DNA of 51,802 bases from Escherichia phage vB_EcoS_NBD2, in the sequence record NC_031050.1, one strand, 5' to 3'. Shown piece after piece: positions 577 to 51,201 of this stretch. A program made the position numbers and the translations under genes. A model generated the notes under the pieces. That model made no database searches. It saw only the letters and a list, made by a program, of their open reading frames with translations, and was not told the DNA's origin. The number at the start of each line of letters is the position of its first letter. Positions within the stretch are counted from its first letter, which is position 1.

Positions 577-779
577 AAAAGCACAGAATCGTTTTAGTCG
601 ATACGGTAACGGCGCTTGGCGATCCGGTCAAGTGGTATGCTGCCCAGGTTCGGGTTGCATTCTTCTGGTGGGTTACGATTCATCACTTTTCACAATTGCG
701 TGATGCGCGTTACTGGTTACACCAGAGCGGGGCAACAAAAAGAATGCTGACGGAAAAAGTGTTAAAGGTAATCGAATAG
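573..779 (+). CDS. hypothetical protein
   Basis: 68-aa ORF, ATGA start/stop overlap with upstream gene. Confidence 0.45.
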   Translation: MKKHRIVLVDTVTALGDPVKWYAAQVRVAFFWWVTIHHFSQLRDARYWLHQSGATKRMLTEKVLKVIE

Positions 780-819
780 CACGAATTGTTAAACGTGCCC
801 GATCTGATTAGGGCATAAT
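777..819 (+). promoter_or_regulatory. motif promoter (TAGCACgaaTTGTTAAAC, 22 nt, CATAAT)
   Basis: Motif 777-794, -10-like 814-819. Confidence 0.55.
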
Positions 820-850
820 GCTTTCACACCAACGAAACGAGGCAACAAAC

Positions 851-1294
851 ATGCAGACTGCAAAACTCTTGGCAATCCTGAAACGCATTGATGACCTGAA
901 CGCACAGATCTTTTCTGGTAGCCTGGAAGGTGACGAACTGACGGCAATCACCAATCACCGCAATCAACTTGCATTGCAGTATATGAACGGTCTGGAAGAG
1001 GTAGAGTTAGTCAAGCCTGGTGAGCGTGTCGTTTCTGGCTTTGCTGCAACCGTCCTGGCAATCCACAAAGAATGCGGAATCCAGTTGCGCTATGCGGCAT
1101 TCATGGCTGATTCATGTGATTACACCATCGTTGGGCGAGGGGCTGAATTCATGGCATGGATTGCCAGCATCAAGGCGAAGTACAAAGAAGCGCATCCAGG
1201 TTGGATGTATGGCGCAGACACGATCGGCAATCAGCACCATTTCACAAGCTATATTGTGTCGGGCGCTTACATGGTCGATAGCACTAATTGCTAA
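851..1294 (+). CDS. hypothetical protein
   Basis: ORF 818..1294, start placed at ATG 851 after RBS aacgagg; preceded by motif promoter 777-819. Confidence 0.55.
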   Translation: MQTAKLLAILKRIDDLNAQIFSGSLEGDELTAITNHRNQLALQYMNGLEEVELVKPGERVVSGFAATVLAIHKECGIQLRYAAFMADSCDYTIVGRGAEFMAWIASIKAKYKEAHPGWMYGADTIGNQHHFTSYIVSGAYMVDSTNC

Positions 1295-1321
1295 AACAAC
1301 AATCAGGGGCTATGCAATAAT
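1279..1321 (+). promoter_or_regulatory. motif promoter (TAGCACtaaTTGCTAAAAC, 22 nt, AATAAT)
   Basis: Motif 1279-1297; -10-like 1316-1321 lies in the loop of hairpin GGGGCTAT/ATAGCCCC. Confidence 0.55.
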
Positions 1322-1350
1322 AGCCCCACACCAAACGAGAAGGAAACACC

Positions 1351-1590
1351 ATGAGCGTCACCATTACGCACACAATGAAAATGCGCGTCGAATCGATGCC
1401 ACTGGAAGCAAGAATCATCGGAGTTTATCAGGGTGATGATCTGGTTGATTTCGTGTTTAAGCCTAATCGCATCGAAGTACACGACGACATAATCACTTTC
1501 CTGGATGCGCACGGCGCACATCGTGGCGAAGGGTTCACGGCGGAGGTGAGCTTTAAGCGCGGAACAATCCTGAAAGTTGAGGTGAAGTGA
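1351..1590 (+). CDS. hypothetical protein
   Basis: 79-aa ORF with RBS gagaagga; preceded by motif promoter. Confidence 0.55.
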   Translation: MSVTITHTMKMRVESMPLEARIIGVYQGDDLVDFVFKPNRIEVHDDIITFLDAHGAHRGEGFTAEVSFKRGTILKVEVK

Positions 1591-1907
1591 TGAAACGATT
1601 TTCACTACTGGCACCAATCGCACTTCTTGCAGCGCTAACCATTGCATTAACCGGATGCGACAACTCAACCCGCGTGCCAGTTGAGCAGCGCGGAAAAGTG
1701 CAGGTTAATACGGCTGAATCAGGCCGCGTGCAGGTTCGCAAGATCAGTGAATTTCGCGACGATCTGGCTTACGATGATTATCGCGGAGTGTACATCATCA
1801 CGGACACCGAAACGGGGCAAGAGTTTATCGGCGTTAGCGGCGTTGGTATCAGTGCGATCGGGCAGCACAATTGCGGTAAAAATTGCTGGCGCAAAGACGA
1901 ACGATAG
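1587..1907 (+). CDS. putative lipoprotein
   Basis: N-terminal signal peptide followed by lipobox-like LTGC; start overlaps stop of upstream gene. Confidence 0.55.
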   Translation: MMKRFSLLAPIALLAALTIALTGCDNSTRVPVEQRGKVQVNTAESGRVQVRKISEFRDDLAYDDYRGVYIITDTETGQEFIGVSGVGISAIGQHNCGKNCWRKDER

Positions 1908-1947
1908 CACGAATTGCTAAAACTCATCATCGGGGCTATGCCATAAT
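1905..1947 (+). promoter_or_regulatory. motif promoter (TAGCACgaaTTGCTAAAAC, 22 nt, CATAAT)
   Basis: Motif 1905-1923, -10-like 1942-1947 within hairpin. Confidence 0.55.
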
Positions 1948-2023
1948 AGCCCCATACACAGCACGGGAGCACAGCGCGATGAATGGCGTCGAGCCTCCCA
2001 CACCAAACGAGAAGGAATAGGAA

Positions 2024-2557
2024 ATGATGTTAGAAATAAAGGCAAGCAAGGTTATCCCTGGGCAGATGATGGCAGTTGTTGGCGAAACCCGAATTGATAT
2101 TCCCGATTGGGTTTATAGCGTGGCGGTAGATGCAGATGGCGAATTGTGGGGCTTCTGCTCAATGGCGGAACCAATGCGCGATGGCGAAGTGTGGAACGAT
2201 CACACCAGCGCCGAACAATCACGCGTTGAGTTGCTGGGAGACTTCAAGGGCGGCGTTGTTGGCTGGGCTGACTCATTGACAGTTATCGATCGCGAGCCGA
2301 AGAAGAAGCCTAAAGCAGATCGCCGCGTGCTTCGTGGTCTGGTTCTGGATAGCATCACGCGCGACGTTGAGGCAGGCGAGTTGGGCGCACGCAATACAGC
2401 GGCAATCATTCGCGATCTGGATGTGGCGACGTTCAACGGCTACACAACGTTAAAGCTTGTGCAGGCATTCGCCCTGGCTGGCTATGATATCCGCAACACT
2501 CACACGATGAAGGCATTCGAAGCCATCGATCGCAAGGTTCAAGAGGCCTGGGCATGA
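2024..2557 (+). CDS. hypothetical protein
   Basis: 177-aa ORF, RBS gaaggaa, preceded by motif promoter. Confidence 0.55.
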   Translation: MMLEIKASKVIPGQMMAVVGETRIDIPDWVYSVAVDADGELWGFCSMAEPMRDGEVWNDHTSAEQSRVELLGDFKGGVVGWADSLTVIDREPKKKPKADRRVLRGLVLDSITRDVEAGELGARNTAAIIRDLDVATFNGYTTLKLVQAFALAGYDIRNTHTMKAFEAIDRKVQEAWA

Positions 2558-2658
2558 GCACGCTCGCACCCATTATCATCACAATCTGCGTGTGCCTCGC
2601 TATCGTCGTGATCTCAAGGCTCATCGTAACGGCTATCCGCATCAAGCGGGATGAATAG
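2554..2658 (+). CDS. small hydrophobic peptide (34 aa)
   Basis: ATG 2554 overlapping upstream stop; translation MSTLAPIIITICVCLAIVVISRLIVTAIRIKRDE is one predicted TM helix; below the ORF-track length cutoff. Confidence 0.35.
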   Translation: MSTLAPIIITICVCLAIVVISRLIVTAIRIKRDE

Positions 2659-2698
2659 CACGAAATGACAAAACGGCTGGCTCACTGATTGGTATACT
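2656..2698 (+). promoter_or_regulatory. motif promoter, degenerate (TAGCACgaaATGACAAAAC, 22 nt, TGgTATACT)
   Basis: Motif 2656-2674, extended -10 2690-2698. Confidence 0.5.
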
Positions 2699-2955: not shown

Positions 2956-3333
2956 ATGAAACGCATTAAAGTTAAATGCCTGGCAGTTGACCGTTACATT
3001 TCCGAGTTTTACACCCCTGGCAAGTGGTACACCCTGGAAGTTATTGAAAAGCTGGATATTGCCCAGCAGACCCGCGAGATTCCAACCGATCGCGATGGTT
3101 GCTCACTTCGTGTTAGCCGTGAGCGCGGCGACAATTACCGCTATCGTGTTGCGGGCTATGAAGGCACGCTGTTTGACTCGAAGCCGTGGCGCTTCCGCAA
3201 GAAGAATCATTTTTGCGTTGATATCGACTACAGCAAATGCGCTCGCTCAATCCGTCGCCAGGCTCGCAACGTAGCCAAAGAGCTTTATTCGTGCGGCAAT
3301 CTGGAGAAGATCGCGCGCAGCTATGGAAAATAG
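2956..3333 (+). CDS. hypothetical protein
   Basis: 125-aa ORF, RBS aagga. Confidence 0.55.
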   Translation: MKRIKVKCLAVDRYISEFYTPGKWYTLEVIEKLDIAQQTREIPTDRDGCSLRVSRERGDNYRYRVAGYEGTLFDSKPWRFRKKNHFCVDIDYSKCARSIRRQARNVAKELYSCGNLEKIARSYGK

Positions 3334-3373
3334 CACTTTTTGTTAAAACGCCGAATCGGGGTTGCGCTATAGT
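3331..3373 (+). promoter_or_regulatory. motif promoter (TAGCACtttTTGTTAAAAC, 22 nt, TATAGT)
   Basis: Motif 3331-3349, -10 3368-3373. Confidence 0.55.
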
Positions 3374-3404
3374 AACCCCATCAACAACGAACGAGGAAAT
3401 GCAA

Positions 3405-3620
3405 ATGCGCCTTTTATGCACATTCAGCCAAACGAAAAATTTCGTTGCTGGCAAGGAGTACGAAAGCGAAGTTGTACGGCGTTGCGGGATGGATTTCAAC
3501 GAGGTTAAGGGTGAAAGCGGCTTTCCCGTATGCCTTCAGCCTGGCGATAGCGCCCGCGATGTATCAGCTTTTTCCGGTCACAAACTGTTAGCGGACTTTC
3601 AACCAGTAGAGGATCAGTAA
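3405..3620 (+). CDS. hypothetical protein
   Basis: ORF 3237..3620 trimmed to ATG 3405 downstream of RBS gagga and motif promoter 3331-3373. Confidence 0.45.
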   Translation: MRLLCTFSQTKNFVAGKEYESEVVRRCGMDFNEVKGESGFPVCLQPGDSARDVSAFSGHKLLADFQPVEDQ

Positions 3621-4132: not shown

Positions 4133-4339
4133 ATGCAGATCTACACATCGCCAGGCGGCGCGCAATATCTTGTTTTTCGCGGGCTGGTATATTTCAAGCC
4201 AGTAGACGGCGGCGAGGTTAGAATGTCAGATATGGGGGTTGGTCGATTCCTTGACCTGATCGCCAAAGGATTCATGACATACAGCCGCACCGTCAACCCA
4301 GCATTAGCGTATAGGCCGGAGCACTGGAAACAGCACTAA
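4133..4339 (+). CDS. hypothetical protein
   Basis: 68-aa ORF directly after upstream stop. Confidence 0.45.
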   Translation: MQIYTSPGGAQYLVFRGLVYFKPVDGGEVRMSDMGVGRFLDLIAKGFMTYSRTVNPALAYRPEHWKQH

Positions 4340-4373
4340 TTGCTAAAACTTGCCCAGGGGCATTTGATAGAAT
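4331..4373 (+). promoter_or_regulatory. motif promoter (CAGCACtaaTTGCTAAAAC, 22 nt, TAGAAT)
   Basis: Motif 4331-4349, -10 4368-4373. Confidence 0.5.
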
Positions 4374-4413: not shown

Positions 4414-5004
4414 ATGACTATTCAACGATACACAATGCGAAGTGTAAATGGAGAGCCTGAAATGGTGGCTCACGGCGCAGGGGCGTATGTAACCTACGCA
4501 TCACACGCCGAAGAATTGCTCCGCGTACAGGGCGAATTAGACGCCTTAAAAGACGGCTTAAAACGTCAAATTTTCGCGCCACTTGAAAAAGCCATGATGA
4601 ATGCGCTTATTAAAACAGCAATGCAGGCAACGCATACCGTCTACACCGTCAACCCATGCGACAAGCTGACTTCCGAGCGAGTGCGTGAAATTATGGATGC
4701 CCAGATCGGAGCGGGGGTAATCAGCCTGGCGGAAGTTGAAGAGCGCGGTTTCGCAACTGGCGGATTTATGGCAATCCCAATAACACGACCAGATCCAGAA
4801 TCCCTGCTTTGCATCAAATCGGACGCCAAAAGCTTCAAGGCTGGAGAGTCTTACCAGTGCGAGGCCAACAAAGACGGCGCTTTGTTCGTAACGCAAGATG
4901 AATTCGTTTCCGATCTGAATGAAGATGATTACTGGCACGTCACGGACGGCGGCGCGTATTACATCGTCGAAACGATCGCGGGTAATGCCTACTTTAAGAA
5001 GTAG
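4414..5004 (+). CDS. hypothetical protein
   Basis: ORF 4372..5004 trimmed to ATG 4414 after RBS aacgagg; preceded by motif promoter. Confidence 0.55.
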   Translation: MTIQRYTMRSVNGEPEMVAHGAGAYVTYASHAEELLRVQGELDALKDGLKRQIFAPLEKAMMNALIKTAMQATHTVYTVNPCDKLTSERVREIMDAQIGAGVISLAEVEERGFATGGFMAIPITRPDPESLLCIKSDAKSFKAGESYQCEANKDGALFVTQDEFVSDLNEDDYWHVTDGGAYYIVETIAGNAYFKK

Positions 5005-5044
5005 CACTTTTTGTTAAACGGGCACGTGTGCTGACTGGTATCAT
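5002..5044 (+). promoter_or_regulatory. motif promoter (TAGCACtttTTGTTAAAC, 22 nt, TGgTATCAT)
   Basis: Motif 5002-5019, extended -10 5036-5044. Confidence 0.55.
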
Positions 5045-6325: not shown

Positions 6326-6326
6326 A

Positions 6327-6369
6327 TAGCACTTTTTGTTAAACCCTCTTCGGAGGGTTTTGTTATAGT
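6327..6369 (+). promoter_or_regulatory. motif promoter overlapping a terminator hairpin (22 nt, TATAGT)
   Basis: Motif 6327-6344, hairpin CCCTC-ttcg-GAGGG 6344-6357, -10 6364-6369. Confidence 0.55.
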
Positions 6370-6400: not shown

Positions 6401-6625
6401 ATGATTAAGTCAATCAAAGTTAAGTGCATCAAGTCAACTGGCGGCGCATTCATGAAAGGCCAGATCTACAACGCAAGCATGAGTGATGGGGATTGGTGCG
6501 TTAAAGGGGTTGATGATTACAGCTACACAACGTTACGCGGAATGTGGGGAACTATCTACTATTGCAGCCTTGACCGCAAAGTAAGATTCACCTTTGAACC
6601 AGTAGAAAAAGAGGATTTAGAATAA
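6401..6625 (+). CDS. hypothetical protein
   Basis: 74-aa ORF, RBS ggagcgacggaa, preceded by motif promoter. Confidence 0.5.
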   Translation: MIKSIKVKCIKSTGGAFMKGQIYNASMSDGDWCVKGVDDYSYTTLRGMWGTIYYCSLDRKVRFTFEPVEKEDLE

Positions 6626-6915: not shown

Positions 6916-7183
6916 AAAGGCCAACATTTCACGAAGCAATGATTATTGCTTTACTTATGCTTACGAGCGCGGCGGCATTACGCGCAATCTTATTCTTCGC
7001 ATTCATACAGGGCGCAAAATGAAAACTTTCCTGATCTTCATGGCTGGCTCAATCATGCTGACAGCAACAACCGAAGGCGTAACGCCGTTAATCGCAGGCG
7101 GCCTTATCGCCTGGGCTTATTACCGCTGCGGGCACGATGACGGATTCAAGGCCGGAAAGCGAAACATCTTAACTGGCAAATAG
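6905..7183 (+). CDS. hypothetical protein, possibly membrane
   Basis: 92-aa ORF with hydrophobic C-terminal half; start uncertain (alternative ATG about 7019). Confidence 0.35.
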   Translation: MQHEKANISRSNDYCFTYAYERGGITRNLILRIHTGRKMKTFLIFMAGSIMLTATTEGVTPLIAGGLIAWAYYRCGHDDGFKAGKRNILTGK

Positions 7184-7223
7184 CACGATTTGTTAAAAGG
7201 GCATTCATCCTGATTGGTATAAT
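7181..7223 (+). promoter_or_regulatory. motif promoter (TAGCACgatTTGTTAAAAG, 22 nt, TGgTATAAT)
   Basis: Motif 7181-7199, extended -10 7215-7223. Confidence 0.6.
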
Positions 7224-7253: not shown

Positions 7254-7715
7254 ATGAAACAAGTTGCAATTTGTACTCACTCAATCACCCGCGATTTCGT
7301 TGTTGGCGAATCGTATGAAATCAAGCCAAAAAACGGCGGGCGCGGCTTTTACGTTGGCGGTAACTGGACGGGCTACGCATACGACAGCGAAACCCCCGAT
7401 TTAATCGACGTGCGCGGCGTTAACAGGACGATTGCCAGCTTCAACAAGGGAATCGCACGCAAGAAAAAAAGCCTTCTCAAAATGCTTGTGCGTGCGCATG
7501 TGGTGTATGCAAAATCGCGTGGATGGGGTGATAGCAAAAACGGCGCTCATAAATCCTGGAGCGGCACGCCATACAAGAGCGCGCACGATTGGGCGCGTTG
7601 CTTTGCCCTGGGCTATGACCTAAAAGCGATTGAGCAGGACGCGGAAGCGGAAGGCCAGCCAGTTGATCAGGAGTTCGTAAACTGGTTCGTTGATGAGCAG
7701 ATGAGTTATTATTGA
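7254..7715 (+). CDS. hypothetical protein
   Basis: 153-aa ORF, RBS agaggaa, preceded by motif promoter. Confidence 0.55.
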   Translation: MKQVAICTHSITRDFVVGESYEIKPKNGGRGFYVGGNWTGYAYDSETPDLIDVRGVNRTIASFNKGIARKKKSLLKMLVRAHVVYAKSRGWGDSKNGAHKSWSGTPYKSAHDWARCFALGYDLKAIEQDAEAEGQPVDQEFVNWFVDEQMSYY

Positions 7716-7786: not shown

Positions 7787-8218
7787 ATGAAATTACGTTG
7801 CCTTTTTGTTTCAACCTCCATGTATTCCGCCGTAGCCGCTCGCCTGTTTGATGTTGGCGCGGAGTATCTGGCAAAGCCTCGCCCTGGTTCGCAGATTGAG
7901 GCGGTCGATATCATCACCAAAAACCCAGCGCGAGAGGGTAACGTTGTGTTAACCGGATTCGTGAACGAGTACACCGGAAACGTTGACATCGTGGCTGGTG
8001 GTGGAATTGTCGCCACTTTCACAAGTCCGAAGGCATCGCGCCTGGCCAAGTCAGAAAAGCGAGTGCCACACAAAGCAGACGGCACGGGGCAAACTGACAA
8101 GCGCCGTTTCCGCCGCGTTTGCCGCCAGTATTGCAAACTTCGCTTCATCAACCCTGCGTTTACGTGCCCAGAGTCACACCGCCAAATGCAAAAGCTGGCG
8201 CAATTCCACCGCCGATAG
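7787..8218 (+). CDS. hypothetical protein
   Basis: ORF 7712..8218 trimmed to ATG 7787 after RBS agaggaa; preceded by canonical sigma70-like promoter. Confidence 0.5.
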   Translation: MKLRCLFVSTSMYSAVAARLFDVGAEYLAKPRPGSQIEAVDIITKNPAREGNVVLTGFVNEYTGNVDIVAGGGIVATFTSPKASRLAKSEKRVPHKADGTGQTDKRRFRRVCRQYCKLRFINPAFTCPESHRQMQKLAQFHRR

Positions 8219-8258
8219 CACGAATTGCTAAAACTCCCCTGGGGTAAGCTGTTATAGT
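8216..8258 (+). promoter_or_regulatory. motif promoter (TAGCACgaaTTGCTAAAAC, 22 nt, TATAGT)
   Basis: Motif 8216-8234, -10 8253-8258. Confidence 0.55.
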
Positions 8259-8289: not shown

Positions 8290-8520
8290 ATGAAAAATAA
8301 CCCACTGGTGATGATTGTCCGCACAACCAACCGCGTAGAGCCTGACGCTCTGACGCTGAAAGAATGCGGTTTCAAGGTTGGCGATGTCGTTGAAATTGAT
8401 GGTTACTACCGCGACGGAACCGCGAGCACTCACGCAATTCGCGAAGGCCTGGGAATCCGCGTTGGCGACAATATCAGCCTTGAGAGTGACGAGTTTGTTA
8501 TTGTGGAGGGTTCCTTATGA
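8290..8520 (+). CDS. hypothetical protein
   Basis: 76-aa ORF, RBS ggagcagcaaaa, preceded by motif promoter. Confidence 0.5.
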   Translation: MKNNPLVMIVRTTNRVEPDALTLKECGFKVGDVVEIDGYYRDGTASTHAIREGLGIRVGDNISLESDEFVIVEGSL

Positions 8521-9423: not shown

Positions 9424-9511
9424 GGAAGGATGGCAGAGAGGACGATTGCGCGCGGTTGCTAACCGTGAAGCCGGAAACGGCTCAAGGGTTCGAATCCCTT
9501 TCTTTCCACCA
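9424..9511 (+). tRNA. tRNA-Ser (anticodon GCU), class II with long variable arm, CCA encoded
   Basis: Hand-folded cloverleaf: acceptor GGAAGGA/TCTTTCC (one G-U), U8, D-stem GCAG/TTGC, anticodon stem CGCGG/CCGTG, loop TTGCTAA (U33, GCT, A37), variable arm GCCG-gaaa-CGGC, T-arm AAGGG-TTCGAAT-CCCTT, discriminator A, CCA. Confidence 0.8.
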
Positions 9512-16017: not shown

Positions 16018-16045
16018 TTGACCGTTTAGCAAAAAGTGCTATTAT
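16018..16045 (+). promoter_or_regulatory. strong promoter for major capsid gene (TTGACC-16-TGcTATTAT); contains motif dyad in inverse orientation
   Basis: -35 16018-16023, TG 16037-16038, -10 16040-16045; TAGCA-aaaag-TGCTA at 16027-16041. Confidence 0.6.
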
Positions 16046-29763: not shown

Positions 29764-29806
29764 AGTATAGCCCCATTTGCGGGGCTTGTTTTAGCAATTC
29801 GTGCGG
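29764..29806 (-). promoter_or_regulatory. motif promoter on - strand (CCGCACgaaTTGCTAAAAC, 22 nt, TATACT)
   Basis: Reverse complement of 29788-29806 is the motif; -10 is reverse complement of 29764-29769. Confidence 0.45.
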
Positions 29807-30460
29807 TTAGTTGTAACCCTGGAATTTCGCGTATGGTATTTTGAGGTTTCCGCGACCGTTGAAGATTTCAGAGAAAGAGCGTTGGTTTCTTCTGATCCAG
29901 TATGTCTGCAACTGCGATCCCGTCCAGCGCATGAGGTTGCCGGAATAACCCTGAGTTTCTCCGTCGTCGCTCCATTCACCGTAACAGGCATCCCAGAGAA
30001 AGAAGGGGTTAAAACCTGGAGTCACGGAGGCAACGTTAGCCTCAAGGTTGAATGACGCCGGAACGTCAAGGAATCCCATTATTCGAGGCATTGTTGCGGC
30101 GCTAGCGGCAGTCCAAACAAGATTACCGGAAGCGTCGAATACGTCGAGATAGCCGGACGCAAGCGCCTTGTTTCTCGAAGTCCTGATTATCCTGATTGCG
30201 TTAGTGCTGAACATATCCGCGCCAGGGTAGCCCCACTGGTTATTACCTGTAAACTGAATCCAGGTTAGAAAACCATCCTTGCGCTTATCACCATCGCGAA
30301 GATTGCCAAGGGCTTTAACGTCGCCAAATGGCGTGCTTAGGCTGTAAGCCCCAACGTCAATTAGCGGCTGCGGAGTGTAGACGGAATCAAAGATCGTATG
30401 CTTTTGATCGGAGTTGATCAGGACAACACCAGCGTTATTAAGTACCTCAAAGCCTGACAT
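29807..30460 (-). CDS. hypothetical protein
   Basis: 217-aa ORF, first or second gene of a - strand operon from the 30.8-31.2 kb control region. Confidence 0.5.
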   Translation of the reverse strand: MSGFEVLNNAGVVLINSDQKHTIFDSVYTPQPLIDVGAYSLSTPFGDVKALGNLRDGDKRKDGFLTWIQFTGNNQWGYPGADMFSTNAIRIIRTSRNKALASGYLDVFDASGNLVWTAASAATMPRIMGFLDVPASFNLEANVASVTPGFNPFFLWDACYGEWSDDGETQGYSGNLMRWTGSQLQTYWIRRNQRSFSEIFNGRGNLKIPYAKFQGYN

Positions 30461-31276: not shown

Positions 31277-32335
31277 ATGACACCTACCAAACCGCAAGCG
31301 GATTTTTTCTGGTTCACAAACGATGAAATGCCGAACGACTTTTATCACGATAAAGAAGCCTGGACGTTCGACTATGTTTCCGGTTCAAGCCTGGGTAAAA
31401 TTCACTCATCATGCCTGGCAAAGTGGCGCTTCGAAGAGAATGAGCCAACGGCGGCGCTGGAGTTCGGCACACAGGCGCACACCAACTTTGAAAGCAACGA
31501 GCTATTCGCATCAACCTACCGACGCGCCCCGTTCGTTGAAGATTTCAAGGATGCTATCACTTCGCAAGCAGCATTCGCGGCTAAATTGAAAAGCTTCGGC
31601 CTGACAGGTACAAGCGGGAAGCAATATCCAGAGCTTTGCAAAATATACGCTGATTGCGGTGAAGATCTTAACGTAATGTGGATTGAAGATCTGATCGCGC
31701 AATCAAAGGCGGCGCACGATGGCGTTGAGTTGGTAAAGGCCGAAGATTATGATGCCTGTGTTTCAATGCGTAAGGTGCTGGAGTCTATACCGGAATACGC
31801 ACAACTCATGAACGATCCGGCAGCGATGCACGAGCTTTCATTGTTCGGCAAAATAAACGGCGTGAACGTCAAAGTTCGCCTGGATTACTGCGCAACAATC
31901 AGCGATCCTGAAATGATTAAGTTGCTGGGCTATAACCCAGAGATTAACCCAGAGATTGTGCTGATTCTTGACTATAAGACAACGACCAGCGCCAACCCTC
32001 ACGAGTTCGATCGAAAGGCGTTTGATCTGGGCTATTACTTGAAGATGGCTTTGCAGCGTGATTTGTTTGTCAATGTGTTTGAAGAAACGCGCCCCGTCGC
32101 AGTTGTCCTACTAACCCAGGAAAAGAAAGCGCCATTCTTGCCTCTGGCTCGACCAATGACGAAAGAGCAGATCATTCACGGGCGCAAGCAGTACATGAGC
32201 GTTATTCACCAGTACGAGATCAGCAGCCGTGATGATGTTTGGCCTTCTTACGCAAACGGCGCGCCATTCGTTCACCTGCAAACGCCGGATTACATCAAGC
32301 GCCAACATCCTGATATTTACGGCGAAAACAAATAG
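31277..32335 (+). CDS. PD-(D/E)xK-family recombination exonuclease
   Basis: Motifs VRLDY and ILDYKTT consistent with PD-(D/E)xK nuclease core; ORF 31217..32335 trimmed to ATG 31277 (RBS gaggat); precedes Erf-like and SSB genes. Confidence 0.5.
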   Translation: MTPTKPQADFFWFTNDEMPNDFYHDKEAWTFDYVSGSSLGKIHSSCLAKWRFEENEPTAALEFGTQAHTNFESNELFASTYRRAPFVEDFKDAITSQAAFAAKLKSFGLTGTSGKQYPELCKIYADCGEDLNVMWIEDLIAQSKAAHDGVELVKAEDYDACVSMRKVLESIPEYAQLMNDPAAMHELSLFGKINGVNVKVRLDYCATISDPEMIKLLGYNPEINPEIVLILDYKTTTSANPHEFDRKAFDLGYYLKMALQRDLFVNVFEETRPVAVVLLTQEKKAPFLPLARPMTKEQIIHGRKQYMSVIHQYEISSRDDVWPSYANGAPFVHLQTPDYIKRQHPDIYGENK

Positions 32336-32403
32336 CACTAAAAGCTAAACAAAAAGAGGCTCATACGGTATAATGAGCCTCAATCAAACAAACAAAGAAG
32401 GTA

Positions 32404-35944: not shown

Positions 35945-35975
35945 TCTGTTTGTTAATAGCACGAATTGCTAAAGG
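35945..35975 (-). promoter_or_regulatory. motif-containing candidate promoter for - strand tail fibre gene
   Basis: Motif TAGCACgaaTTGCTAAA at 35956-35973; on - strand it supplies gTGcTATTAA extended -10-like sequence about 20 nt before the start. Confidence 0.4.
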
Positions 35976-36963: not shown

Positions 36964-37017
36964 TGCTTTTGCTCCGGCAATAAAAAAGGTTGCACCGATT
37001 ATGGCACAACCTCTGGC

Positions 37018-37494
37018 TTATTCTTTAGCTTTTAGTGCTGCCTCACGCTCGCGCTTAATCCGTTTCCATGATGGTTGTTCCGGCTTGTGGGCTAACTCAT
37101 CCTCACGAACCACACGCATCATTTCACGCTTTTTGCATCGCACTGTTAATGGCTTGCCGTTGCCGTCGAAGGTGAGATCTGGTCGGCACCATGTAGCGCG
37201 AAAGCCCTTAGCCCCATTTCGCTTATATGCGTTGTGCGCCTTCTGCGCCCCGCGCGCGGAAATCATGCCGTTTTTAATCCAGATGGTGAGCAGTGAGTTT
37301 GAGATCTTCAACTCACGGCAAACGTTGGCCTTCGAGCCGTAAAACTCGATAAGCATTTCAAGGCGGGCACGCAATCCGGCCTTTACTTCATCTTTCAGAA
37401 CGTAGTAGCCTGTAGGCCGCTTGCGCTTCTTCTTGTCTGCGCCGCGCTGCGTTCCGTTGTTCCCGTTAATGGCTCGCTTGTCAACTTCAATCAT
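37018..37494 (-). CDS. HTH DNA-binding protein, putative transcriptional regulator
   Basis: Predicted helix-turn-helix around ANVCRELKISNSLLTIWIKNG; basic N- and C-termini. Confidence 0.45.
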   Translation of the reverse strand: MIEVDKRAINGNNGTQRGADKKKRKRPTGYYVLKDEVKAGLRARLEMLIEFYGSKANVCRELKISNSLLTIWIKNGMISARGAQKAHNAYKRNGAKGFRATWCRPDLTFDGNGKPLTVRCKKREMMRVVREDELAHKPEQPSWKRIKREREAALKAKE

Positions 37495-37505
37495 AAATCC
37501 CCCGA

Positions 37506-37547
37506 TAGCACTTTTTGTTAAACATTCTATTCGATAGCGTGTATTAT
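37506..37547 (+). promoter_or_regulatory. motif promoter (TAGCACtttTTGTTAAAC, 21 nt, TATTAT) in divergent intergenic region
   Basis: Motif 37506-37523, -10 37542-37547. Confidence 0.5.
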
Positions 37548-39661: not shown

Positions 39662-40077
39662 TCACCGATAAAGGCGAATATCTTGAGTATTACCAGGCTA
39701 ACCCGCTGGACACGTGGAAAGAGGACAAACACCAGGTTGATTGCGTGGCATGGCTGCGCTATCACTACCCGAACCTTTTATTCTGGCACACAGTCAACGA
39801 AGGGAAAAAGCATATCAATTCCGCCCTTCGTGATGAGCAGGCGGGGCTAAAAAAGGGCGTGAGCGACTTCGTAATCCTGATTGGTCATCACGATCGCAAG
39901 TACGCATTTGCAGCGATTGAGTTGAAGAGAACCAACAAGAGCGGCAAGGCCAAAGCCTCACCAGTTAGCAAAGAGCAGAAAGCTTTCTTGCTTGACGTTC
40001 GCGAGCGCGGAGGATTCGCGGCGGTTGCATACGGTCTGGATCAGTTTAAATTAGCGATCGAAGATATGTTGAAATAG
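39658..40077 (+). CDS. VRR-NUC domain nuclease
   Basis: 139 aa with D...E.K arrangement (DFVILIG...AIELKR) typical of VRR-NUC. Confidence 0.55.
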   Translation: MITDKGEYLEYYQANPLDTWKEDKHQVDCVAWLRYHYPNLLFWHTVNEGKKHINSALRDEQAGLKKGVSDFVILIGHHDRKYAFAAIELKRTNKSGKAKASPVSKEQKAFLLDVRERGGFAAVAYGLDQFKLAIEDMLK

Positions 40078-40117
40078 CACGAATTGCTAAACACGTGCCG
40101 GAGCAATCCGGCATAAT
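40075..40117 (+). promoter_or_regulatory. motif promoter (TAGCACgaaTTGCTAAAC, 22 nt, CATAAT)
   Basis: Motif 40075-40092, hairpin GCCGGA-gcaa-TCCGGC, -10 40112-40117. Confidence 0.55.
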
Positions 40118-40147: not shown

Positions 40148-40876
40148 ATGAAAGACGTTGCAGACAAAGACACTCATGACGCATTCGTAACCTTCGAACA
40201 GGTTGAGCGTGAGAACTTCATCACAAACGCGCTCGTTCCAGGTTGCGGGCATTATTCGGCGGTCAAGCCGGACACGTTCTATCAGGTTACGGGCAACCGT
40301 TATGCCGGAAGCAAGACGCCGGATGTTGTGCGCGATTTGTGGGCTACCGATCGCGAGCTTATCGGCTGGATGGAAAAGCGTTACGGCAAGTATGACATTG
40401 ACGCGGCAGCGAGCGAAAACAACGCAGTGTGTGAAAAGTTCTACGACGAAAAGCGCAACTGTTTGAAAATCTGGTGGGGCAAAGACAAGCACATCTGGCT
40501 CAATCCTCCGTACTCACATCCCGATCCTTTCGTTAAAAAGGCGATTGAGCAGATGGAGCACGGCAACCAGATTGATATGCTTCTTCCTGGCGACAACTCA
40601 ACGGCATGGTTTGCCGAAGCGCGAGCAAACGCGGCGGAGGTCATCTGGATTGAGGCAGAGATCACAGAGATTGACCAGCAGGAATACTGCCGAACCGGAC
40701 GCCTGGCCTTTATCTCTGGGCTAACCGGAAAACCAGTTGACGGCAATAACAAAGGCAGCGTGATTTTCATCATGCGCGAACTGAAAGAAGGCGAGACACA
40801 ACAAACGCATTACGTTTCCGTAAGCGAGATTTGCCCAGGTGTTAGCCGTAAAAAACCACGCAAGCGGAGTGTTTAA
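40148..40876 (+). CDS. dam: DNA N6-adenine methyltransferase (phage Dam-type)
   Basis: Catalytic NPPY motif in IWLNPPYSHPDPF. Confidence 0.7.
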   Translation: MKDVADKDTHDAFVTFEQVERENFITNALVPGCGHYSAVKPDTFYQVTGNRYAGSKTPDVVRDLWATDRELIGWMEKRYGKYDIDAAASENNAVCEKFYDEKRNCLKIWWGKDKHIWLNPPYSHPDPFVKKAIEQMEHGNQIDMLLPGDNSTAWFAEARANAAEVIWIEAEITEIDQQEYCRTGRLAFISGLTGKPVDGNNKGSVIFIMRELKEGETQQTHYVSVSEICPGVSRKKPRKRSV

Positions 40877-40877
40877 G

Positions 40878-41108
40878 ATGCGAGATCGCAACGTTAGACT
40901 GAATGAGATCGGCCTGAAATGTTTATTTGTTGGCCTTGTTTGCGCACAGCTTGAAATGGCTGGATTCACTGGAGATGCCTTCAAGCTGGCAAACTCTCTT
41001 GATATGAGCTTTGAAGAGATAGCGCCGAAGGATATCATTGAATGGGGCGCGCTAATCGCCAAAGACCTTGAAGAGTTCAAGGCTGAAAACCCCGAAGAGT
41101 TCGAATAG
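40878..41108 (+). CDS. hypothetical acidic protein
   Basis: ORF 40839..41108 trimmed to ATG 40878; acidic C-terminus. Confidence 0.4.
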   Translation: MRDRNVRLNEIGLKCLFVGLVCAQLEMAGFTGDAFKLANSLDMSFEEIAPKDIIEWGALIAKDLEEFKAENPEEFE

Positions 41109-41148
41109 CACTAATTGCTAAACATACCCGCCGCCGTGCGGGTATAAT
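41106..41148 (+). promoter_or_regulatory. motif promoter (TAGCACtaaTTGCTAAAC, 22 nt, TATAAT)
   Basis: Motif 41106-41123, -10 41143-41148. Confidence 0.6.
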
Positions 41149-41179: not shown

Positions 41180-41434
41180 ATGAAACGCACTTTCGATTAC
41201 TCAAAAACCGTTAGCACCTACAATTTCACAGAGTCACGCGGCAAAATCTTGATGCCTCACCTTCTGCGCCTGGCGCAATCATGCGCGCGTGAATCAATCG
41301 CCCTGGGTGATAATGGAGGGCTTGACGAGGCGATCGCGGTTGTTTATCTTCGCGCCGCATATGGTCATGAACCAGTTGGCACGCTTGAGCAAATGGCTAC
41401 GGCCTTCAACCTGCATGACGGCACATTATGTTAA
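41180..41434 (+). CDS. hypothetical protein
   Basis: 84-aa ORF, RBS ggagcag, preceded by motif promoter. Confidence 0.5.
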   Translation: MKRTFDYSKTVSTYNFTESRGKILMPHLLRLAQSCARESIALGDNGGLDEAIAVVYLRAAYGHEPVGTLEQMATAFNLHDGTLC

Positions 41435-41989: not shown

Positions 41990-43147
41990 TTGAAAATGCA
42001 ACGCAAAATTTCAGATGAGCAGTTAATCGCAGAGCGAGAATCAGGCAAAACACAGCGCCAGATCGCGGAAGAGTACGGCATGAATCAGCGCACAGTTGAG
42101 CAGCGTTGCGCACGCCTGGCGAAGAAAGGCCACGGGCACGGTAACAGCACTGTTAGCCGCCATGTGCCGGACGGGTTCGCAGTAAAGGGCACGTCAACCA
42201 TGATTCGCGCGAATGGCGAAGAGGTGATCCGATGGGTTAAGACCGATCAGGATCGCGAGAAGTTAGCAGCCATGATGGATGCGGCTATTGATGCGTTTTG
42301 CGAAGAGTTGCCGCGAGCAGCAGCACAGCCAGCCCCACTGGTTCACAACTGGAAAGAAGATCAGCTTGCTCTTTATCCGGTCTTTGACCTGCACATTGGC
42401 GCTATGGCTCATAAGCACGAGTGCGGCGAAAACTACAGCACTGACATTTCAGAAAAGGTGCTGGGAGACTTCTTCAACTACGCCGTAAACGTAGCGCCGG
42501 AAGCGAAAAAAGCAGTTCTGTTAATCGGCGGTGACTTCCTTCACTCTGACGGCCTGGACGCTGTAACACCTGCAAGCGGTCACGTTCTCGATCAGGACTC
42601 ACGCTACGCTAAACTTGTGCATGTTGCGATCCGCTCCACTCGCCGCGCAGTTGCAAAAATGCTGGACAAGCACGCAGAGGTTGAGATCCAGATCATCGAG
42701 GGGAACCATGACCAGGCGGGCATGATTTGGCTTCGTGCTGCAATGGCTGCATTCTATGAAGATGAGCCGCGCGTCACCGTTGACGTTAGCCCAATGATTC
42801 TGCACCGGACGAAGTGGGGCAAAACGCTGTTAGGATACACTCACGGGCACACGATGAAGAAAGCAGAAACGCGCCTTGCGGCGATGGCTACGGACTTCCG
42901 CGAAGAGTTCGGCACCAGCAAATACATTTACACCCACTCTGGGCACTGGCACCACCAGACGATCACAGAGGGCACTTTAGGGATTGATGAAGTGCATGGG
43001 CAGTTAGGCGCAAAAGATGCCTACGCAGCGCGCGGCGGCTGGCGCTCATATCGTCAAGCGGCGGTGATCGTCTACTCAAAAGAGTTTGGCGAAATCGGGC
43101 GTTTCGTGTATCGTCCAGAAATGGCAGGAAATAGCACGAAAAGCTAA
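41990..43147 (+). CDS. HTH domain fused to calcineurin-like metallophosphoesterase
   Basis: N-terminal HTH-like ESGKTQRQIAEEYGMNQRTVEQ; metallophosphatase motifs DLHIG, GGDFLHSDG, EGNHD, HGH, GHWHH in order. Confidence 0.6.
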   Translation: MKMQRKISDEQLIAERESGKTQRQIAEEYGMNQRTVEQRCARLAKKGHGHGNSTVSRHVPDGFAVKGTSTMIRANGEEVIRWVKTDQDREKLAAMMDAAIDAFCEELPRAAAQPAPLVHNWKEDQLALYPVFDLHIGAMAHKHECGENYSTDISEKVLGDFFNYAVNVAPEAKKAVLLIGGDFLHSDGLDAVTPASGHVLDQDSRYAKLVHVAIRSTRRAVAKMLDKHAEVEIQIIEGNHDQAGMIWLRAAMAAFYEDEPRVTVDVSPMILHRTKWGKTLLGYTHGHTMKKAETRLAAMATDFREEFGTSKYIYTHSGHWHHQTITEGTLGIDEVHGQLGAKDAYAARGGWRSYRQAAVIVYSKEFGEIGRFVYRPEMAGNSTKS

Positions 43148-43174
43148 ACAATTGCCGGAGTAATCCGGCATACT
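43132..43174 (+). promoter_or_regulatory. motif promoter, degenerate (TAGCACgaaAAGCTAAAC, 22 nt, CATACT)
   Basis: Motif 43132-43149, -10 43169-43174. Confidence 0.45.
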
Positions 43175-43204: not shown

Positions 43205-43312
43205 ATGAAAAAGTTTGTTTTAGGCTACGTAATCCCTTTCGTTCTGGGCGCTGTAGTCACCGCCGCTTTACTTTCCGTCATTCACCTGGCATCAAATTTT
43301 AAAGGGTTCTAA
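43205..43312 (+). CDS. small hydrophobic peptide (35 aa)
   Basis: ATG 43205 after RBS agaggaaaa and motif promoter; one predicted TM helix; below ORF-track cutoff. Confidence 0.4.
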   Translation: MKKFVLGYVIPFVLGAVVTAALLSVIHLASNFKGF

Positions 43313-43490: not shown

Positions 43491-43510
43491 AATCATCACC
43501 TTACCCAATA

Positions 43511-43534
43511 GGAGCCTTTCGAGGCTCCTTTTTT
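43511..43534 (+). terminator. intrinsic terminator (GGAGCC-tttcga-GGCTCC plus T6)
   Basis: Same stem as four other terminators. Confidence 0.65.
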
Positions 43535-43615
43535 GTGCTTCTCGTTTGTCAAAAAGTGCTGTATTATTGGCCTTACTTAATTAAATCATTGACAACTATT
43601 TCAAAGGGGGATCTC

Positions 43616-46932: not shown

Positions 46933-47349
46933 TTAGAGATATTTCGCTTCAAAGGTTGTACCGTCTGCGATCGAGAAGCCAACCTCTTCGCGGTACAGAC
47001 TCCAGCGGCAACCATCGTTATCGAAGATGTAACCAGCAACCCCGCCCAGCGCGCGCCCCGTTTCCACCTGGTAACGTTTCCCAACCGTGAAAGACTTTTT
47101 CACGGGGTTTTTGTGATCCAGCGCCATGCACTTGAGGGTTTTCGTTTTCAACTCAACGAAGCGGGCGAACACAGAGCCATCACCATTGGCACCGAAGATT
47201 TCACCGCTAACGCCAACCGAAAGGAAAACTTTGCTCTTTCCGGTTCCGGTTGAAATGTTGCCCTCATCGTCAATGCGCGCCTTGATCAGAGTATTGGCGG
47301 CGAAAGATTTGGTTGATGTTTCGGTTACTTTCAGTTTGATAGTTTTCAT
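46933..47349 (-). CDS. hypothetical protein
   Basis: ORF 46933..47436 trimmed to ATG at 47349 (MKTIKLKV); upstream part overlaps small membrane peptide gene. Confidence 0.45.
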   Translation of the reverse strand: MKTIKLKVTETSTKSFAANTLIKARIDDEGNISTGTGKSKVFLSVGVSGEIFGANGDGSVFARFVELKTKTLKCMALDHKNPVKKSFTVGKRYQVETGRALGGVAGYIFDNDGCRWSLYREEVGFSIADGTTFEAKYL

Positions 47350-47490: not shown

Positions 47491-47534
47491 ATAATAACAA
47501 AACCCGCCGAAGCTGGTTTAACAAAAAGTGCTAT
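47491..47534 (-). promoter_or_regulatory. motif promoter on - strand (22-23 nt, TATTAT-like)
   Basis: Reverse complement of 47515-47534 is AATAGCACtttTTGTTAAAC. Confidence 0.45.
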
Positions 47535-49260: not shown

Positions 49261-49291
49261 TTCAGTTTCCTTGTTTGGTTGGTGTGAAAGC

Positions 49292-49336
49292 ATTATGCCA
49301 AATCACGCCGGATTAGTTTTAACAAAAAGTGCTATT
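49292..49336 (-). promoter_or_regulatory. motif promoter on - strand (22 nt, CATAAT)
   Basis: Reverse complement of 49316-49336 is the motif; -10 is reverse complement of 49292-49297. Confidence 0.5.
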
Positions 49337-49571: not shown

Positions 49572-49577
49572 TCCCCC

Positions 49578-49856
49578 TTACGCGGTTTTCTTTGCGATCT
49601 TCCAAGCTTCTTTAAACGCTGGTACGTCGTCGATCTCAATCCAAAAGCCAGAACTCATGCCCTCTTCGTACAGCGGGCAAAGGTCGCAGTATGAGTGCCA
49701 GGTTTTTTCTTCGCCGCCGATTGAAAAGCCAGTGCTCATTGCGCAAAGTGCATCTTCAACACGTTCCAGGCGCTCTGCGTCGTTGTCGTGAATTACGAAG
49801 TTCCATTTGCCGTTATACTCGCTACCCAGATTGATTGATTCGCGTACCAGTTTCAT
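49578..49856 (-). CDS. hypothetical protein
   Basis: ORF 49578..49991 trimmed to ATG at 49856; motif promoter upstream. Confidence 0.45.
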   Translation of the reverse strand: MKLVRESINLGSEYNGKWNFVIHDNDAERLERVEDALCAMSTGFSIGGEEKTWHSYCDLCPLYEEGMSSGFWIEIDDVPAFKEAWKIAKKTA

Positions 49857-49893
49857 TTTGTTGCCCTTTTGTGTGCTTCGTTTCGATGGAGTG

Positions 49894-49938
49894 ATAATAA
49901 CAAAAGCACGAACCGCCGTTTTAGCAATTCGTGCTATT
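49894..49938 (-). promoter_or_regulatory. motif promoter on - strand (22 nt, TATTAT)
   Basis: Reverse complement of 49918-49938 is AATAGCACgaaTTGCTAAAAC; -10 is reverse complement of 49894-49899. Confidence 0.5.
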
Positions 49939-49991
49939 TGATTAAGATCGCGCGCGAAACTTCCGCACCTGGGCAGTTGGCCTTTGACCAA

Positions 49992-50180
49992 TCAGCGCGT
50001 CAATTGCTTTTCGTATCGGTTAAGCTTAATCCAGATCTCACCGTACTTGCGCGCCCACTTGTTCGCACCAGGCCGAAAGAGCGCCTCTGTATCGTACAGG
50101 TGAGAATAAACCCACTTCATGCAGGCTATATGCCGGAGCATCCCCTTGCACTTGCCGCGATTTGTCCAGCGCCTGATCAC
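49992..50180 (-). CDS. hypothetical protein
   Basis: 62-aa basic ORF in - strand operon. Confidence 0.35.
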   Translation of the reverse strand: MIRRWTNRGKCKGMLRHIACMKWVYSHLYDTEALFRPGANKWARKYGEIWIKLNRYEKQLTR

Positions 50181-50422
50181 TCGATCACCTCCACTTCATC
50201 ACTACGGAAGTAGATCGAGAAGTTCCACATATCCGGCCCTTCCATGATTTCAGCCGCCGCCCCGCCATGCTTCGCGCAGTCGTGGAGGTGAATATCGAAA
50301 CCCCACTCCGCGCCCATTGCTTCGCTGTGATACTTCGCCTCAACCTCGAAAGGCTTAAACGGGAACTCTTCATTCCATACGTGAACATAATTTTCGTGAC
50401 CGCCGATTACTTTTACTTTCAT
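50177..50422 (-). CDS. hypothetical protein
   Basis: 81-aa ORF, ATGA overlap. Confidence 0.4.
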   Translation of the reverse strand: MKVKVIGGHENYVHVWNEEFPFKPFEVEAKYHSEAMGAEWGFDIHLHDCAKHGGAAAEIMEGPDMWNFSIYFRSDEVEVIE

Positions 50423-50670
50423 GATGATAGCCCCTTGTTGGTTAGTTGTTCTATAATGTTACAGGTTTTGTTTATGCAATCCGCCTGGGCAGATGCGTTT
50501 CCGCTCGTGTAATCACGCTCGACAAGTATATCATAGGCCTCTTCCGTCCAGTGGATGATTGTTACGGTTGTGATTGGTGCTCCCATTCCATTCGAGCGAT
50601 GTTCGCGCCGGACGTAAAGCCCCAAACGTTCAGCCCTGGCAAGAGCGGCGATTAAGCCAGCATGTTTCAT
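50419..50670 (-). CDS. hypothetical protein
   Basis: ORF trimmed to ATG at 50670. Confidence 0.4.
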   Translation of the reverse strand: MKHAGLIAALARAERLGLYVRREHRSNGMGAPITTVTIIHWTEEAYDILVERDYTSGNASAQADCINKTCNIIEQLTNKGLSS

Positions 50671-50927
50671 AATTCCACCGTTAGAAATTGAACTGCCTTT
50701 TCGATGCACTCACCCTGCGAGCCGTAGAACACAGAGAAACCACGCTGGCAGATTGTCCAGGTGCGCGATCCCTTTGCGGTCTGCTTAATCTCAATGTGAT
50801 TGTAAGGATTGCGACGCACGCACTTGAACGCCCCGACCTTCTCACCCTTGCGCTTCGTACTGTATTTGTCCGTAACGACAATCCCGCTATCCGTTGCCAT
50901 GTCGATTGCTTGCTGAATGGTAATCAT
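50667..50927 (-). CDS. hypothetical protein
   Basis: ORF trimmed to ATG at 50927. Confidence 0.4.
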   Translation of the reverse strand: MITIQQAIDMATDSGIVVTDKYSTKRKGEKVGAFKCVRRNPYNHIEIKQTAKGSRTWTICQRGFSVFYGSQGECIEKAVQFLTVEL

Positions 50928-50931
50928 GATC

Positions 50932-51120
50932 TCACCCTCTGCGCCAGATAGAGGCCTTCGCCCCAAATTCAACAACTTTCAATCGCTGCTCAACTCGCGG
51001 AGTCATCTTGTAAGGCCTCCAGTTGAAGTCCGTTTGAAGAGAGAACCATGACCCGTTAGCGGTCTGGATGAATTGCCCATCTTCGCTAGCGTGACGTGTA
51101 CCAGTGATTTCTTTACGCAT
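50932..51120 (-). CDS. hypothetical protein
   Basis: ORF trimmed to ATG at 51120; first gene of rightward-end - strand operon; motif promoter upstream. Confidence 0.4.
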   Translation of the reverse strand: MRKEITGTRHASEDGQFIQTANGSWFSLQTDFNWRPYKMTPRVEQRLKVVEFGAKASIWRRG

Positions 51121-51156
51121 TTTGTGTGCCTCAGTCTGTTTCGTTTCGATGAAATG

Positions 51157-51201
51157 ATAGTAACCCATCTGCGCTGATCGGTTTTAGCAAAAAGTGCTAT
51201 T
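51157..51201 (-). promoter_or_regulatory. motif promoter on - strand for the right-end early operon
   Basis: Reverse complement of 51181-51201 is AATAGCACtttTTGCTAAAAC. Confidence 0.45.

Follow-up and report, generated by a model that had tools for sequence, protein, structure and literature searches.

Escherichia phage vB_EcoS_NBD2 (NC_031050.1) carries copies of one short box in front of many of its genes, which raises the question of what the boxes do and which protein, if any, reads them. The window analyzed here is the whole stretch of 51,802 nucleotides (nt), and all positions below refer to it. The phage is T1-like and belongs to the genus Vilniusvirus of the Drexlerviridae; the first 12 kb of the window match Klebsiella phage vB_KaeD_HazelMika (88% identity, 53% aligned), which is classified in that genus and family, and match further T1-like phages as well. 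The motif itself has already been published. A re-annotation of phage TLS in 2024 described a 21-nt direct repeat, aaATAGCACnnnTTGnTAAAA, in 18 intergenic copies that lie along transcription about 76 nt before start codons, and mentioned that T1, Rtp and Rogue1 have it too (PMC11447400). Its authors reported just three sigma-70-like promoters, suggested stoperators, enhancer sites or UP elements, and left the function of the repeat as an open question (PMC11447400). An earlier note on the window had proposed a phage-specific regulon, served by a dimeric DNA-binding protein or a modified RNA polymerase. We propose a different answer, which we hold to be moderately probable from the sequence evidence given below: the boxes, together with the -10 elements downstream of them, would form class II marbox promoters served by the host activators MarA, SoxS, Rob or RamA. 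The marbox identity and the micF-like 18-nt spacing are new, and the literature that we searched holds no paper linking marbox, MarA, SoxS or Rob to Drexlerviridae phages.

Searching the window with ATAGCACNNNTTGYTAAAAC and allowing at most three mismatches, we found 20 sites where 0.43 were expected, and the maximum in 100 shuffles was 3. When variants with AAGCT in the right half and two weaker boxes are included, there are 24 real boxes, plus a chance-like match at 3415. This count agrees with the earlier note, which had given at least 22 sites, and all nine of the sites that it listed as perfect dyads are correct. We counted conservation on 38 cassettes (a cassette being a box with its -10), pooled from the window and T1; every fraction of 38 below has this scope. 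G4, C5, A6, G13 and A16-18 are invariant in all 38, and position 10 is occupied by A or T only.

The boxes stand at a fixed distance from a -10 element. We defined a -10-like hexamer as one with A at its second position, T at its sixth and at least four of six matches to TATAAT, which gives a background of 1.5% per position. Among the 21 perfect-core boxes of the window, such a hexamer starts exactly 18 nt past the 20-mer in 17 cases and 17 nt past it in one, while offsets of 8-16 nt hold none at all. Once the variant boxes are counted as well, 18 nt separate box and -10 in 19 cassettes and 17 nt do so in two. Among the perfect-core boxes of the window and T1 together, the -10 lies at the fixed 18 nt in 31 of 41. 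The 22-nt spacing given previously agrees with this, since it was counted from where TTGYTA ends and not from where the 20-mer ends. That a -10 follows nearly every copy, as had also been claimed, holds for 21 of the 24 boxes, each of which faces its downstream gene (21/21); the other three have no -10 and are reversed. The -10 is preceded by TGn, and is thus of the extended type, in 21 of 38 cassettes (55%), and an A lies 7 nt past it in 31 of 38. The ATG usually follows the -10 by 31 nt and the start of the box by about 75 nt. Relative to the predicted start site, the box spans about -50 to -31, with its centre at about -41/-42, and the hexamer lying upstream of each -10 by 17 base pairs (bp) agrees with TTGACA at a mean of only 1.8 of six positions (mostly 0-2), so that no -35 can be recognized. 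These values support two points made in the earlier note, namely that the TTGCTA half is not a -35 element and that the motif occupies the position used by class II activators. TTGYTA is in fact ruled out as a -35, because a 22-nt spacer is too long for sigma-70. Standard sigma-70 promoter scans returned counts no better than chance (16 versus 18.4 expected, 21 versus 18.6 and 3 versus 6.6); the cassettes are invisible to such scans and were therefore missed by earlier annotations.

Two further promoter assignments were considered and dropped. TGCTAAAAC could be taken for an extended -10 with a hairpin at the RNA 5' end, but its TAAAAC does not have the T that belongs at -7, and a good -10 is found at the fixed 18 nt. 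CCCCAT, which is seen past the -10, could be taken for a sigma-32 -10, but on inspection no properly spaced TTGAAA accompanies it.

It was guessed in the TLS paper that the repeat might be an UP element, and the box could in this way be a protein-independent, UP-like or other contact of RNA polymerase that strengthens extended -10 promoters (PMC11447400). The box is indeed A/T-rich around TTTTTG and TAAAA, upstream of -30, and promoters with TGn, which make up 55% of the cassettes, could work without a -35. However, the invariant G4, C5 and G13 and the conserved C7 are unlike the A/T-only subsites through which UP elements contact the alpha C-terminal domain, the box lies at -50 to -31 rather than at about -59 to -38 as UP elements do, and the three reversed copies have no -10 of their own. 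We regard this explanation as quite improbable.

The classic form of the marbox is AYnGCACnnWnnRYYAAAYn. The Grainger laboratory works with the shorter consensus gcannwwntgnnaaa (PMC12052159), to which the window contains 21 perfect matches against 1.12 expected, all of them copies of the motif. The DNA crystallized with MarA is the mar site, GATGCCACGTTTTGCTAAATC, and that crystallized with Rob is the micF site, TGACAGCACTGAATGTCAAAG (PMC8279559). By hand count, the phage box ATAGCACTTTTTGCTAAAAC shares 16 of 20 positions with the mar DNA, including all of TTTTGCTAAA, and 14 of 20 with the micF DNA, with which it has AGCAC and the AAAAC tail in common. It has been reported that mutations in the A-box lower the affinity of Rob 7- to 100-fold, compared with 2- to 4-fold for mutations in the B-box (PMC8279559). 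This difference is paralleled in the phage cassettes, where the GCA of the A-box is invariant (38/38) and the B-box is variable. The variation at position 10 (A or T) and at position 14 (C or T in 37 of 38) also agrees with the host consensus.

The arrangement of box and -10 also has a host counterpart. In the micF promoter of E. coli K-12, ACAGCACTGAATGTCAAAAC is followed after 18 nt by TAGAAT, and the RNA starts 7 nt further on, so that box orientation and box-to-(-10) gap are the same as in the phage cassettes. A template built from the host consensus alone (AYNGCACNNWNNRYYAAA, N20, NANNNT) matches micF and finds 16 sites in the window, where 0.00 are expected, and 12 in T1. The gap of fumC is about 17 nt by our own reading of its -10, which is anchored on the start position from the supplement. 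Use of inaA as a second spacing control was abandoned, as its listed site is a predicted one with no -10 at the expected place. Class II marbox sites have been described as lying forward over the -35 position, clustered near -41, in promoters with no recognizable -35 (PMC10268841, PMC8811837, PMC6900184), and class II promoters of Salmonella show a mean -35 match of 1.9 (PMC10268841). Judged by sequence, the phage cassettes agree with such promoters in consensus, forward orientation, position and spacing, and absence of a -35.

If the boxes are marboxes, then the origin of the activator has to be considered. We searched the six-frame translation of the window with a profile of MarA, SoxS and the N-terminal domain of Rob and found no homologue (best E-value 1.1), and a Pfam scan of 10 window proteins gave no HTH_18/AraC match. 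The idea of a phage-encoded MarA-like activator was rejected on the empty profile search, and a host factor is therefore the simplest reading. T1 has the same cassette, and in Webervirus Sushi there are 15 copies, the gap being 18 nt in 13. By BLAST, the cassette occurs in 572 phage records; the genera named are all enterobacterial (Klebsiella, Escherichia, Shigella, Citrobacter, Enterobacter, Salmonella and Pantoea), and the largest host categories among the records are Klebsiella, E. coli, Citrobacter and Raoultella. Being present before infection, a host activator can act at the outermost early cassettes before any phage protein exists.

We suggest the following course of events. A monomer of the host MarA family would bind the box, with pre-existing Rob as the obvious candidate and with MarA, SoxS or RamA taking part under stress. 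With two helix-turn-helix units, it would make contact with GCAC in the A-box and TGYTAAA in the B-box, and the bound activator would stand in for the missing -35 contact and recruit host RNA polymerase, with transcription starting at the conserved A that lies 7 nt past the -10. Both early arms and the genes for replication and recombination could in this way be driven without any phage protein.

The three boxes without a -10, at 16023-16042 (-), 35956-35975 (+) and 43543-43562 (-), face against the local genes. The first of them fills the 16-nt spacer of a canonical promoter upstream of the major-capsid gene. The counterpart in T1, an annotated promoter at 15062-15089 (TTGACG-16-TATTAT), has the same reversed-box spacer, and in E. 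coli pbpG a marbox in the promoter spacer leads to repression by MarA, SoxS and Rob. This comparison suggests that the factor which would activate the early cassettes would also repress the late capsid promoter by way of the reversed box. The other two reversed boxes, each beside a terminator hairpin, are kept in HazelMika and absent from T1.

A wider form of this proposal is that about 20 promoters per genome across the Drexlerviridae (T1, TLS and Webervirus) are wired to host MarA, SoxS, Rob or RamA, that the stress or resistance state of the host sets early expression, and that the repression through the capsid box lifts by titration. We put this forward tentatively, as a possibility somewhat short of an even chance. 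It is speculation that titration acts as a timer, in which replicating DNA, with about 20 boxes per copy, draws off the factor and so lifts the capsid repression.

The symmetry of the box leads to a different candidate. The dyad that had been taken as the mark of a dimeric protein is only 5 bp long (TAGCA/TGCTA). It is broken in 15 of 38 cassettes, in which position 14 is T instead of C (C in 22), although its partner G4 is invariant. Other positions of the two halves are strongly conserved yet not complementary (A1 versus A17, C7 versus T11). As far as the sequence allows such a judgment, conservation this asymmetric would sooner be expected of a monomer that has two unlike helix-turn-helix units than of a symmetric dimer. 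The broken dyad and the different conservation of the halves speak against the dimeric protein or modified polymerase of the earlier note, as do the agreement of the box with all the asymmetric positions that the host marbox specifies and its micF-like orientation and spacing. We conclude that the note was right in its positional logic and probably wrong in the ligand that it proposed.

Nevertheless, one of the two proteins that it named as possible ligands, the small helix-turn-helix protein encoded at 37018-37494, is a real lambda-repressor-like regulator and gives the main rival explanation. It is annotated as 'transcriptional regulator' (phrog_2856), and its orthologues in T1 and Sushi are annotated as P22 C2-like or lambda-repressor-like; a sequence search against solved structures gave no match. 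The other protein, encoded at 41990-43147, is an SbcD-like DNA repair exonuclease whose Pfam helix-turn-helix matches are below threshold, and it is ruled out as a helix-turn-helix regulator. According to the rival explanation, the box is the operator of the phage regulator, which binds as a dimer to TAGCA-N5-TGCTA with the dyad at -42, activates the cassettes as cI activates PRM and autoregulates through its own leader, while the likeness to the marbox is coincidence or mimicry. The regulator is common to T1, Sushi, HazelMika and the window phage, and its gene has a canonical promoter of its own (TTGAGG-16-TATAAT). In the intergenic region of about 90 nt between the regulator and helicase genes, the box is the sole conserved element; counted on the transcript of the regulator, it falls at about +10 to +30. 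Lambda cI, a symmetric dimer on its operator, activates PRM from OR2 at a site centred at -42. The centre of the phage dyad has the same position, which suits a class II dimer. Moreover, A1, T2, A3, T11 and T12 are strongly conserved beyond what the host consensus asks for. Against the regulator, the halves of its supposed operator differ at A1 versus A17 and C7 versus T11, the invariant A17 and A18 have no symmetric counterpart, and the partner of the invariant G4 varies as described above. The putative recognition-helix residues vary among the window phage, T1 and Sushi (SNSLLT, SNQTVQ and SIQVVQ, with 53-63% overall identity), yet the box is identical. In addition, a chance fit to the 15 specified marbox positions together with the micF orientation and spacing is very unlikely, and the outermost boxed cassettes of both arms would have to await a phage protein. 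We consider it unlikely that the box is the operator of this regulator.

The reading of the cassettes as host-served marbox promoters has several difficulties of its own. The conserved A1, T2, A3, T11 and T12 are free in the host marbox consensus; they extend the dyad and might indicate that another ligand binds, instead or in addition. The shared occurrence of the phage regulator, the box in its leader and the position of the dyad centre pull in the same direction. The reversed box in the capsid promoter is decayed in Webervirus Sushi, so that this feature is not universal. Our literature search found no binding, start-site or host-mutant data for any T1-like phage, and no transcription start data for Drexlerviridae. 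In unstressed cells, most of the Rob is in inactive aggregates and there is little MarA or SoxS (PMC10268841), and class II activation of the RamA type amounts to only about 2- to 4-fold (PMC8811837). It would be surprising for a virulent phage to depend on an activation so weak or on factors so scarce. Finally, the only loci to which classical T1-resistant mutants are known to map are fhuA and tonB. Should this hold, the dependence on a host activator is redundant or partial; the TGn elements may give a basal activity that makes it partial.

The remaining part of the cassette, between the box and the predicted start, often holds a hairpin. A GC-rich hairpin of -8 kcal/mol or lower is present there in 42 of 53 cassettes of the window, T1 and Sushi (for example at 1306-1327, 3358-3379, 32356-32381 and 40095-40114), and either encloses the -10 (GGGGCTAT-gcaata-ATAGCCCC) or ends at it. 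The arms vary from site to site yet stay complementary: a perfect stem of at least 5 bp between the spacer and the sequence past the -10 is found in 55% of cases, compared with 15% when partners are mismatched, and none of 10,000 permutations reached the observed complementarity score. Folding is more favorable for the sense RNA than for the antisense RNA (mean difference of -1.9 kcal/mol; p = 2.7e-5), and G-U pairs are more numerous in it (50 versus 23); therefore, selection acts on the read-through RNA rather than on the DNA. A DNA cruciform or an antisense terminator was rejected, given the better folding of the sense strand and the lack of consistently T-rich sequence on the opposite strand between hairpin and box. 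Some of the hairpins are clear terminators, with a T-run that supplies the TGn (6341-6360), and hairpins of this kind are labeled as terminators in the Sushi record. The hairpins probably serve the upstream unit as terminators or 3'-end stabilizers and occupy the one stretch of the cassette that is free of other constraints. At 49905-49935 (-), the box itself is part of such a structure: the A-box sequence AGCACGAA pairs with TTCGTGCT 15 nt downstream, and TTTGTTATTA follows, which gives a terminator-like hairpin.

The boxes also stand close to the ends of upstream genes. As the earlier note had observed, they often overlap a stop codon: in 18 of the 24 boxes the stop of the upstream long open reading frame (ORF) lies inside the 20-mer or at most 2 nt away, mostly as TAG at box positions 2-4 or TAA at 15-17, and at site 4330 as TAA at 8-10. 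These features bear on another guess from the TLS paper, that the boxes are stoperator-like sites as in mycobacteriophage L5, where a bound protein blocks elongation from upstream (PMC11447400). Asymmetric sites that run along transcription, lie in short intergenic gaps over upstream stop codons and are followed by RNA hairpins or terminators would suit this role. However, the fixed 18 nt to the -10, the TGn, the A at the start site and the stereotyped leader are marks of promoters, stoperators need no promoter spacing, and the phage is virulent. We find this explanation highly improbable.

As for the genes served, the window has the T1-like order: 0-10 kb is taken up by rightward small genes and 10-29 kb by structural genes, 29-45 kb carries the genes for recombination, replication and lysis, and 45-51 kb holds leftward small genes. 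The GC content is about 50% throughout. The boxes serve early and DNA-metabolism genes, including the outermost boxed cassette of each arm (776 and 51200), and no structural gene (Table 1); the motif is thus one of about 20 early and middle promoters. It had been noted that the motif occurs at early promoters of both genome ends, which is true; the ends of the window adjoin each other in HazelMika, and therefore 'both ends' are two divergent early arms. The canonical promoters at 7712 and 17077, from which the motif had been said to be absent, both exist and have no box.

Table 1. Boxed cassettes, reversed boxes and the box-containing capsid promoter in the window. Gap, distance from box to -10; extended -10 elements are written with their TGn.
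Feature	Position	Strand	Box	Gap (nt)	-10	Hairpin or other detail	Gene or context
Cassette	776..819	+	ATAGCACGAATTGTTAAACG	18	CATAAT		Downstream ORF ending at 1294
Cassette	1278..1321	+	ATAGCACTAATTGCTAAAAC	18	AATAAT	8-bp hairpin GGGGCTAT/ATAGCCCC around -10	ORF 1351-1590
Cassette	1904..1947	+		18	CATAAT	8-bp hairpin as at 1278	ORF 2024-2557
Cassette	2655..2698	+	ATAGCACGAAATGACAAAAC	18	TGgTATACT	micF-like B-box	ORF 2730-2915
Cassette	3330..3373	+		18	TATAGT	Hairpin GGGGTT/AACCCC	ORF 3405-3620
Cassette	4330..4373	+	ACAGCAC...	18	TGaTAGAAT	-10 is that of micF	ORF ending at 5004
Cassette	5001..5044	+	GTAGCAC...	18	TGgTATCAT		ORF ending at 5705
Cassette	6326..6369	+		18	TGtTATAGT	Terminator AAACCCTCTTCGGAGGGTTT in spacer	ORF 6401-6625
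Cassette	7180..7223	+		18	TGgTATAAT		ORF 7254-7715
Cassette	8215..8258	+		18	TGtTATAGT	Hairpin TGGGGTAA/TTACCCCA	ORF 8290-8520
Cassette	29764..29807	-	ACCGCACGAATTGCTAAAAC	18	TATACT	Spacer hairpin GCCCC/GGGGC	ORF 29732-29400
Variant cassette	32332..32374	+	ATAGCACTAAAAGCTAAACA	17	TATAAT	9-bp hairpin around -10	Erf-like recombinase gene (end 33087)
Variant cassette, in 3' end of regulator gene	36998..37041	-	GCAGCACTAAAAGCTAAAGA	18	CATAAT	-10 in terminator-hairpin loop	Primase gene 36963-36028
Cassette	37505..37547	+		17	TATTAT	Box also in leader of divergent regulator gene	Helicase gene 37586-39661
Cassette	40074..40117	+		18	CATAAT	Spacer hairpin CCGGAGCAATCCGG	Dam methylase gene 40148-40876
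Cassette	41105..41148	+		18	TATAAT	Spacer hairpin/terminator ATACCCGCCGCCGTGCGGGTAT	ORF 41180-41434
Variant cassette	43131..43174	+	ATAGCACGAAAAGCTAAACA	18	CATACT		Small ORF 43205-43312
Cassette	47491..47534	-		18	TGtTATTAT		ORF ending at 46933
Cassette	49292..49335	-		18	TGgCATAAT		ORF 49260-49033
Cassette	49894..49937	-		18	TGtTATTAT		ORF 49856-49578
Outermost boxed cassette, leftward early arm	51157..51200	-		18	TACTAT		ORF 51120-50932
Canonical promoter TTGACC-16-TATTAT	16018..16045	+			TATTAT	Spacer is reversed box 16023-16042 (-)	Upstream of major-capsid gene (16088)
Reversed box without -10	35956..35975	+					Between terminator 36023-36004 (-) and tail-fibre start codon 35933
Reversed box without -10	43543..43562	-	ACAGCACTTTTTGACAAACG				Directly past terminator 43510-43529 (+)

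Several other features of the early arms were observed. The leaders, from 7 to about 30 nt past each -10, are A/C-rich with almost no G or U, and take the forms ACACCAAC... or ATCGAAACGAAAC...; this stretch of about 24 nt has a Shine-Dalgarno sequence at its end and is present in T1 and Sushi too. The leaders may enhance translation or bind a regulator. After the cassette at 1904, a short ORF stands at the usual +31, followed by a second copy of the leader motif (cccacaccaaacgagaa) and then by the start codon at 2024, so that 1978-2023 (+) looks like a duplicated leader. The rightward early arm is closed by a tRNA gene at 9424-9508 (+), annotated as tRNA-Ser in HazelMika, which was the only match in an Rfam search of the window. 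Between the divergent arms, at 51215-51275, lie four or five direct repeats of ATTATTCCA(A), and a very AT-rich stretch follows at 51500-51600; iterons, an origin or a packaging signal may be present here.

The marbox reading offers an answer, open to simple experiments, to the question that the TLS paper stated for the repeat of T1-like phages. If it is true, then this would be, as far as the literature that we searched goes, the first case of the Mar/Sox/Rob system controlling a phage regulon, and phage development would be tied to salicylate, bile salts, oxidative stress and mar or ramA resistance mutations. MarA, SoxS, Rob and RamA are the same proteins that cause multidrug resistance, and numerous near-consensus boxes could titrate MarA, SoxS and Rob during infection. 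The matter is relevant to phage therapy, in which Klebsiella phages of the genus Webervirus are common candidates. TLS-like phages use TolC, which is a target of MarA, SoxS and Rob.

Among known systems, the repeat of TLS is the same element: it has the identical consensus, is likewise intergenic and oriented along transcription, and stands about 76 nt before the ATG, compared with about 75 nt here. The fixed-spacing -10, the marbox identity, the hairpins and the reversed copies are not part of that description (PMC11447400). Lambda cI and T4 MotA-AsiA resemble the system proposed here in that a sigma-70 promoter has its -35 contact replaced or aided by a factor. The MotA box of T4, TGCTT, lies at -30, 12 nt from the -10. 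It resembles TTGCT, but the phage element is 22 nt from the -10, and the asymmetric conservation of the phage box sets it apart from the lambda operator. The pbpG promoter is like the capsid promoters of the window and T1 in having a box in its spacer, which here predicts repression, and differs in that the capsid-promoter box is decayed in Sushi. The closest likeness is to the class II marbox promoters of the host (micF, fumC, lpxC P2 and rfaY P1), which share the asymmetric 20-bp box with GCAC in the A-box and TGnnAAA in the B-box, its forward placement over the -35 position, the sigma-70 -10 and the absence of a recognizable -35. However, the host sites are single chromosomal promoters, whereas about 20 copies occur in a 52-kb virulent phage; the phage boxes are far nearer to the consensus and to one another than the host sites are, and they overlap upstream stop codons and have an RNA hairpin nested in the spacer.

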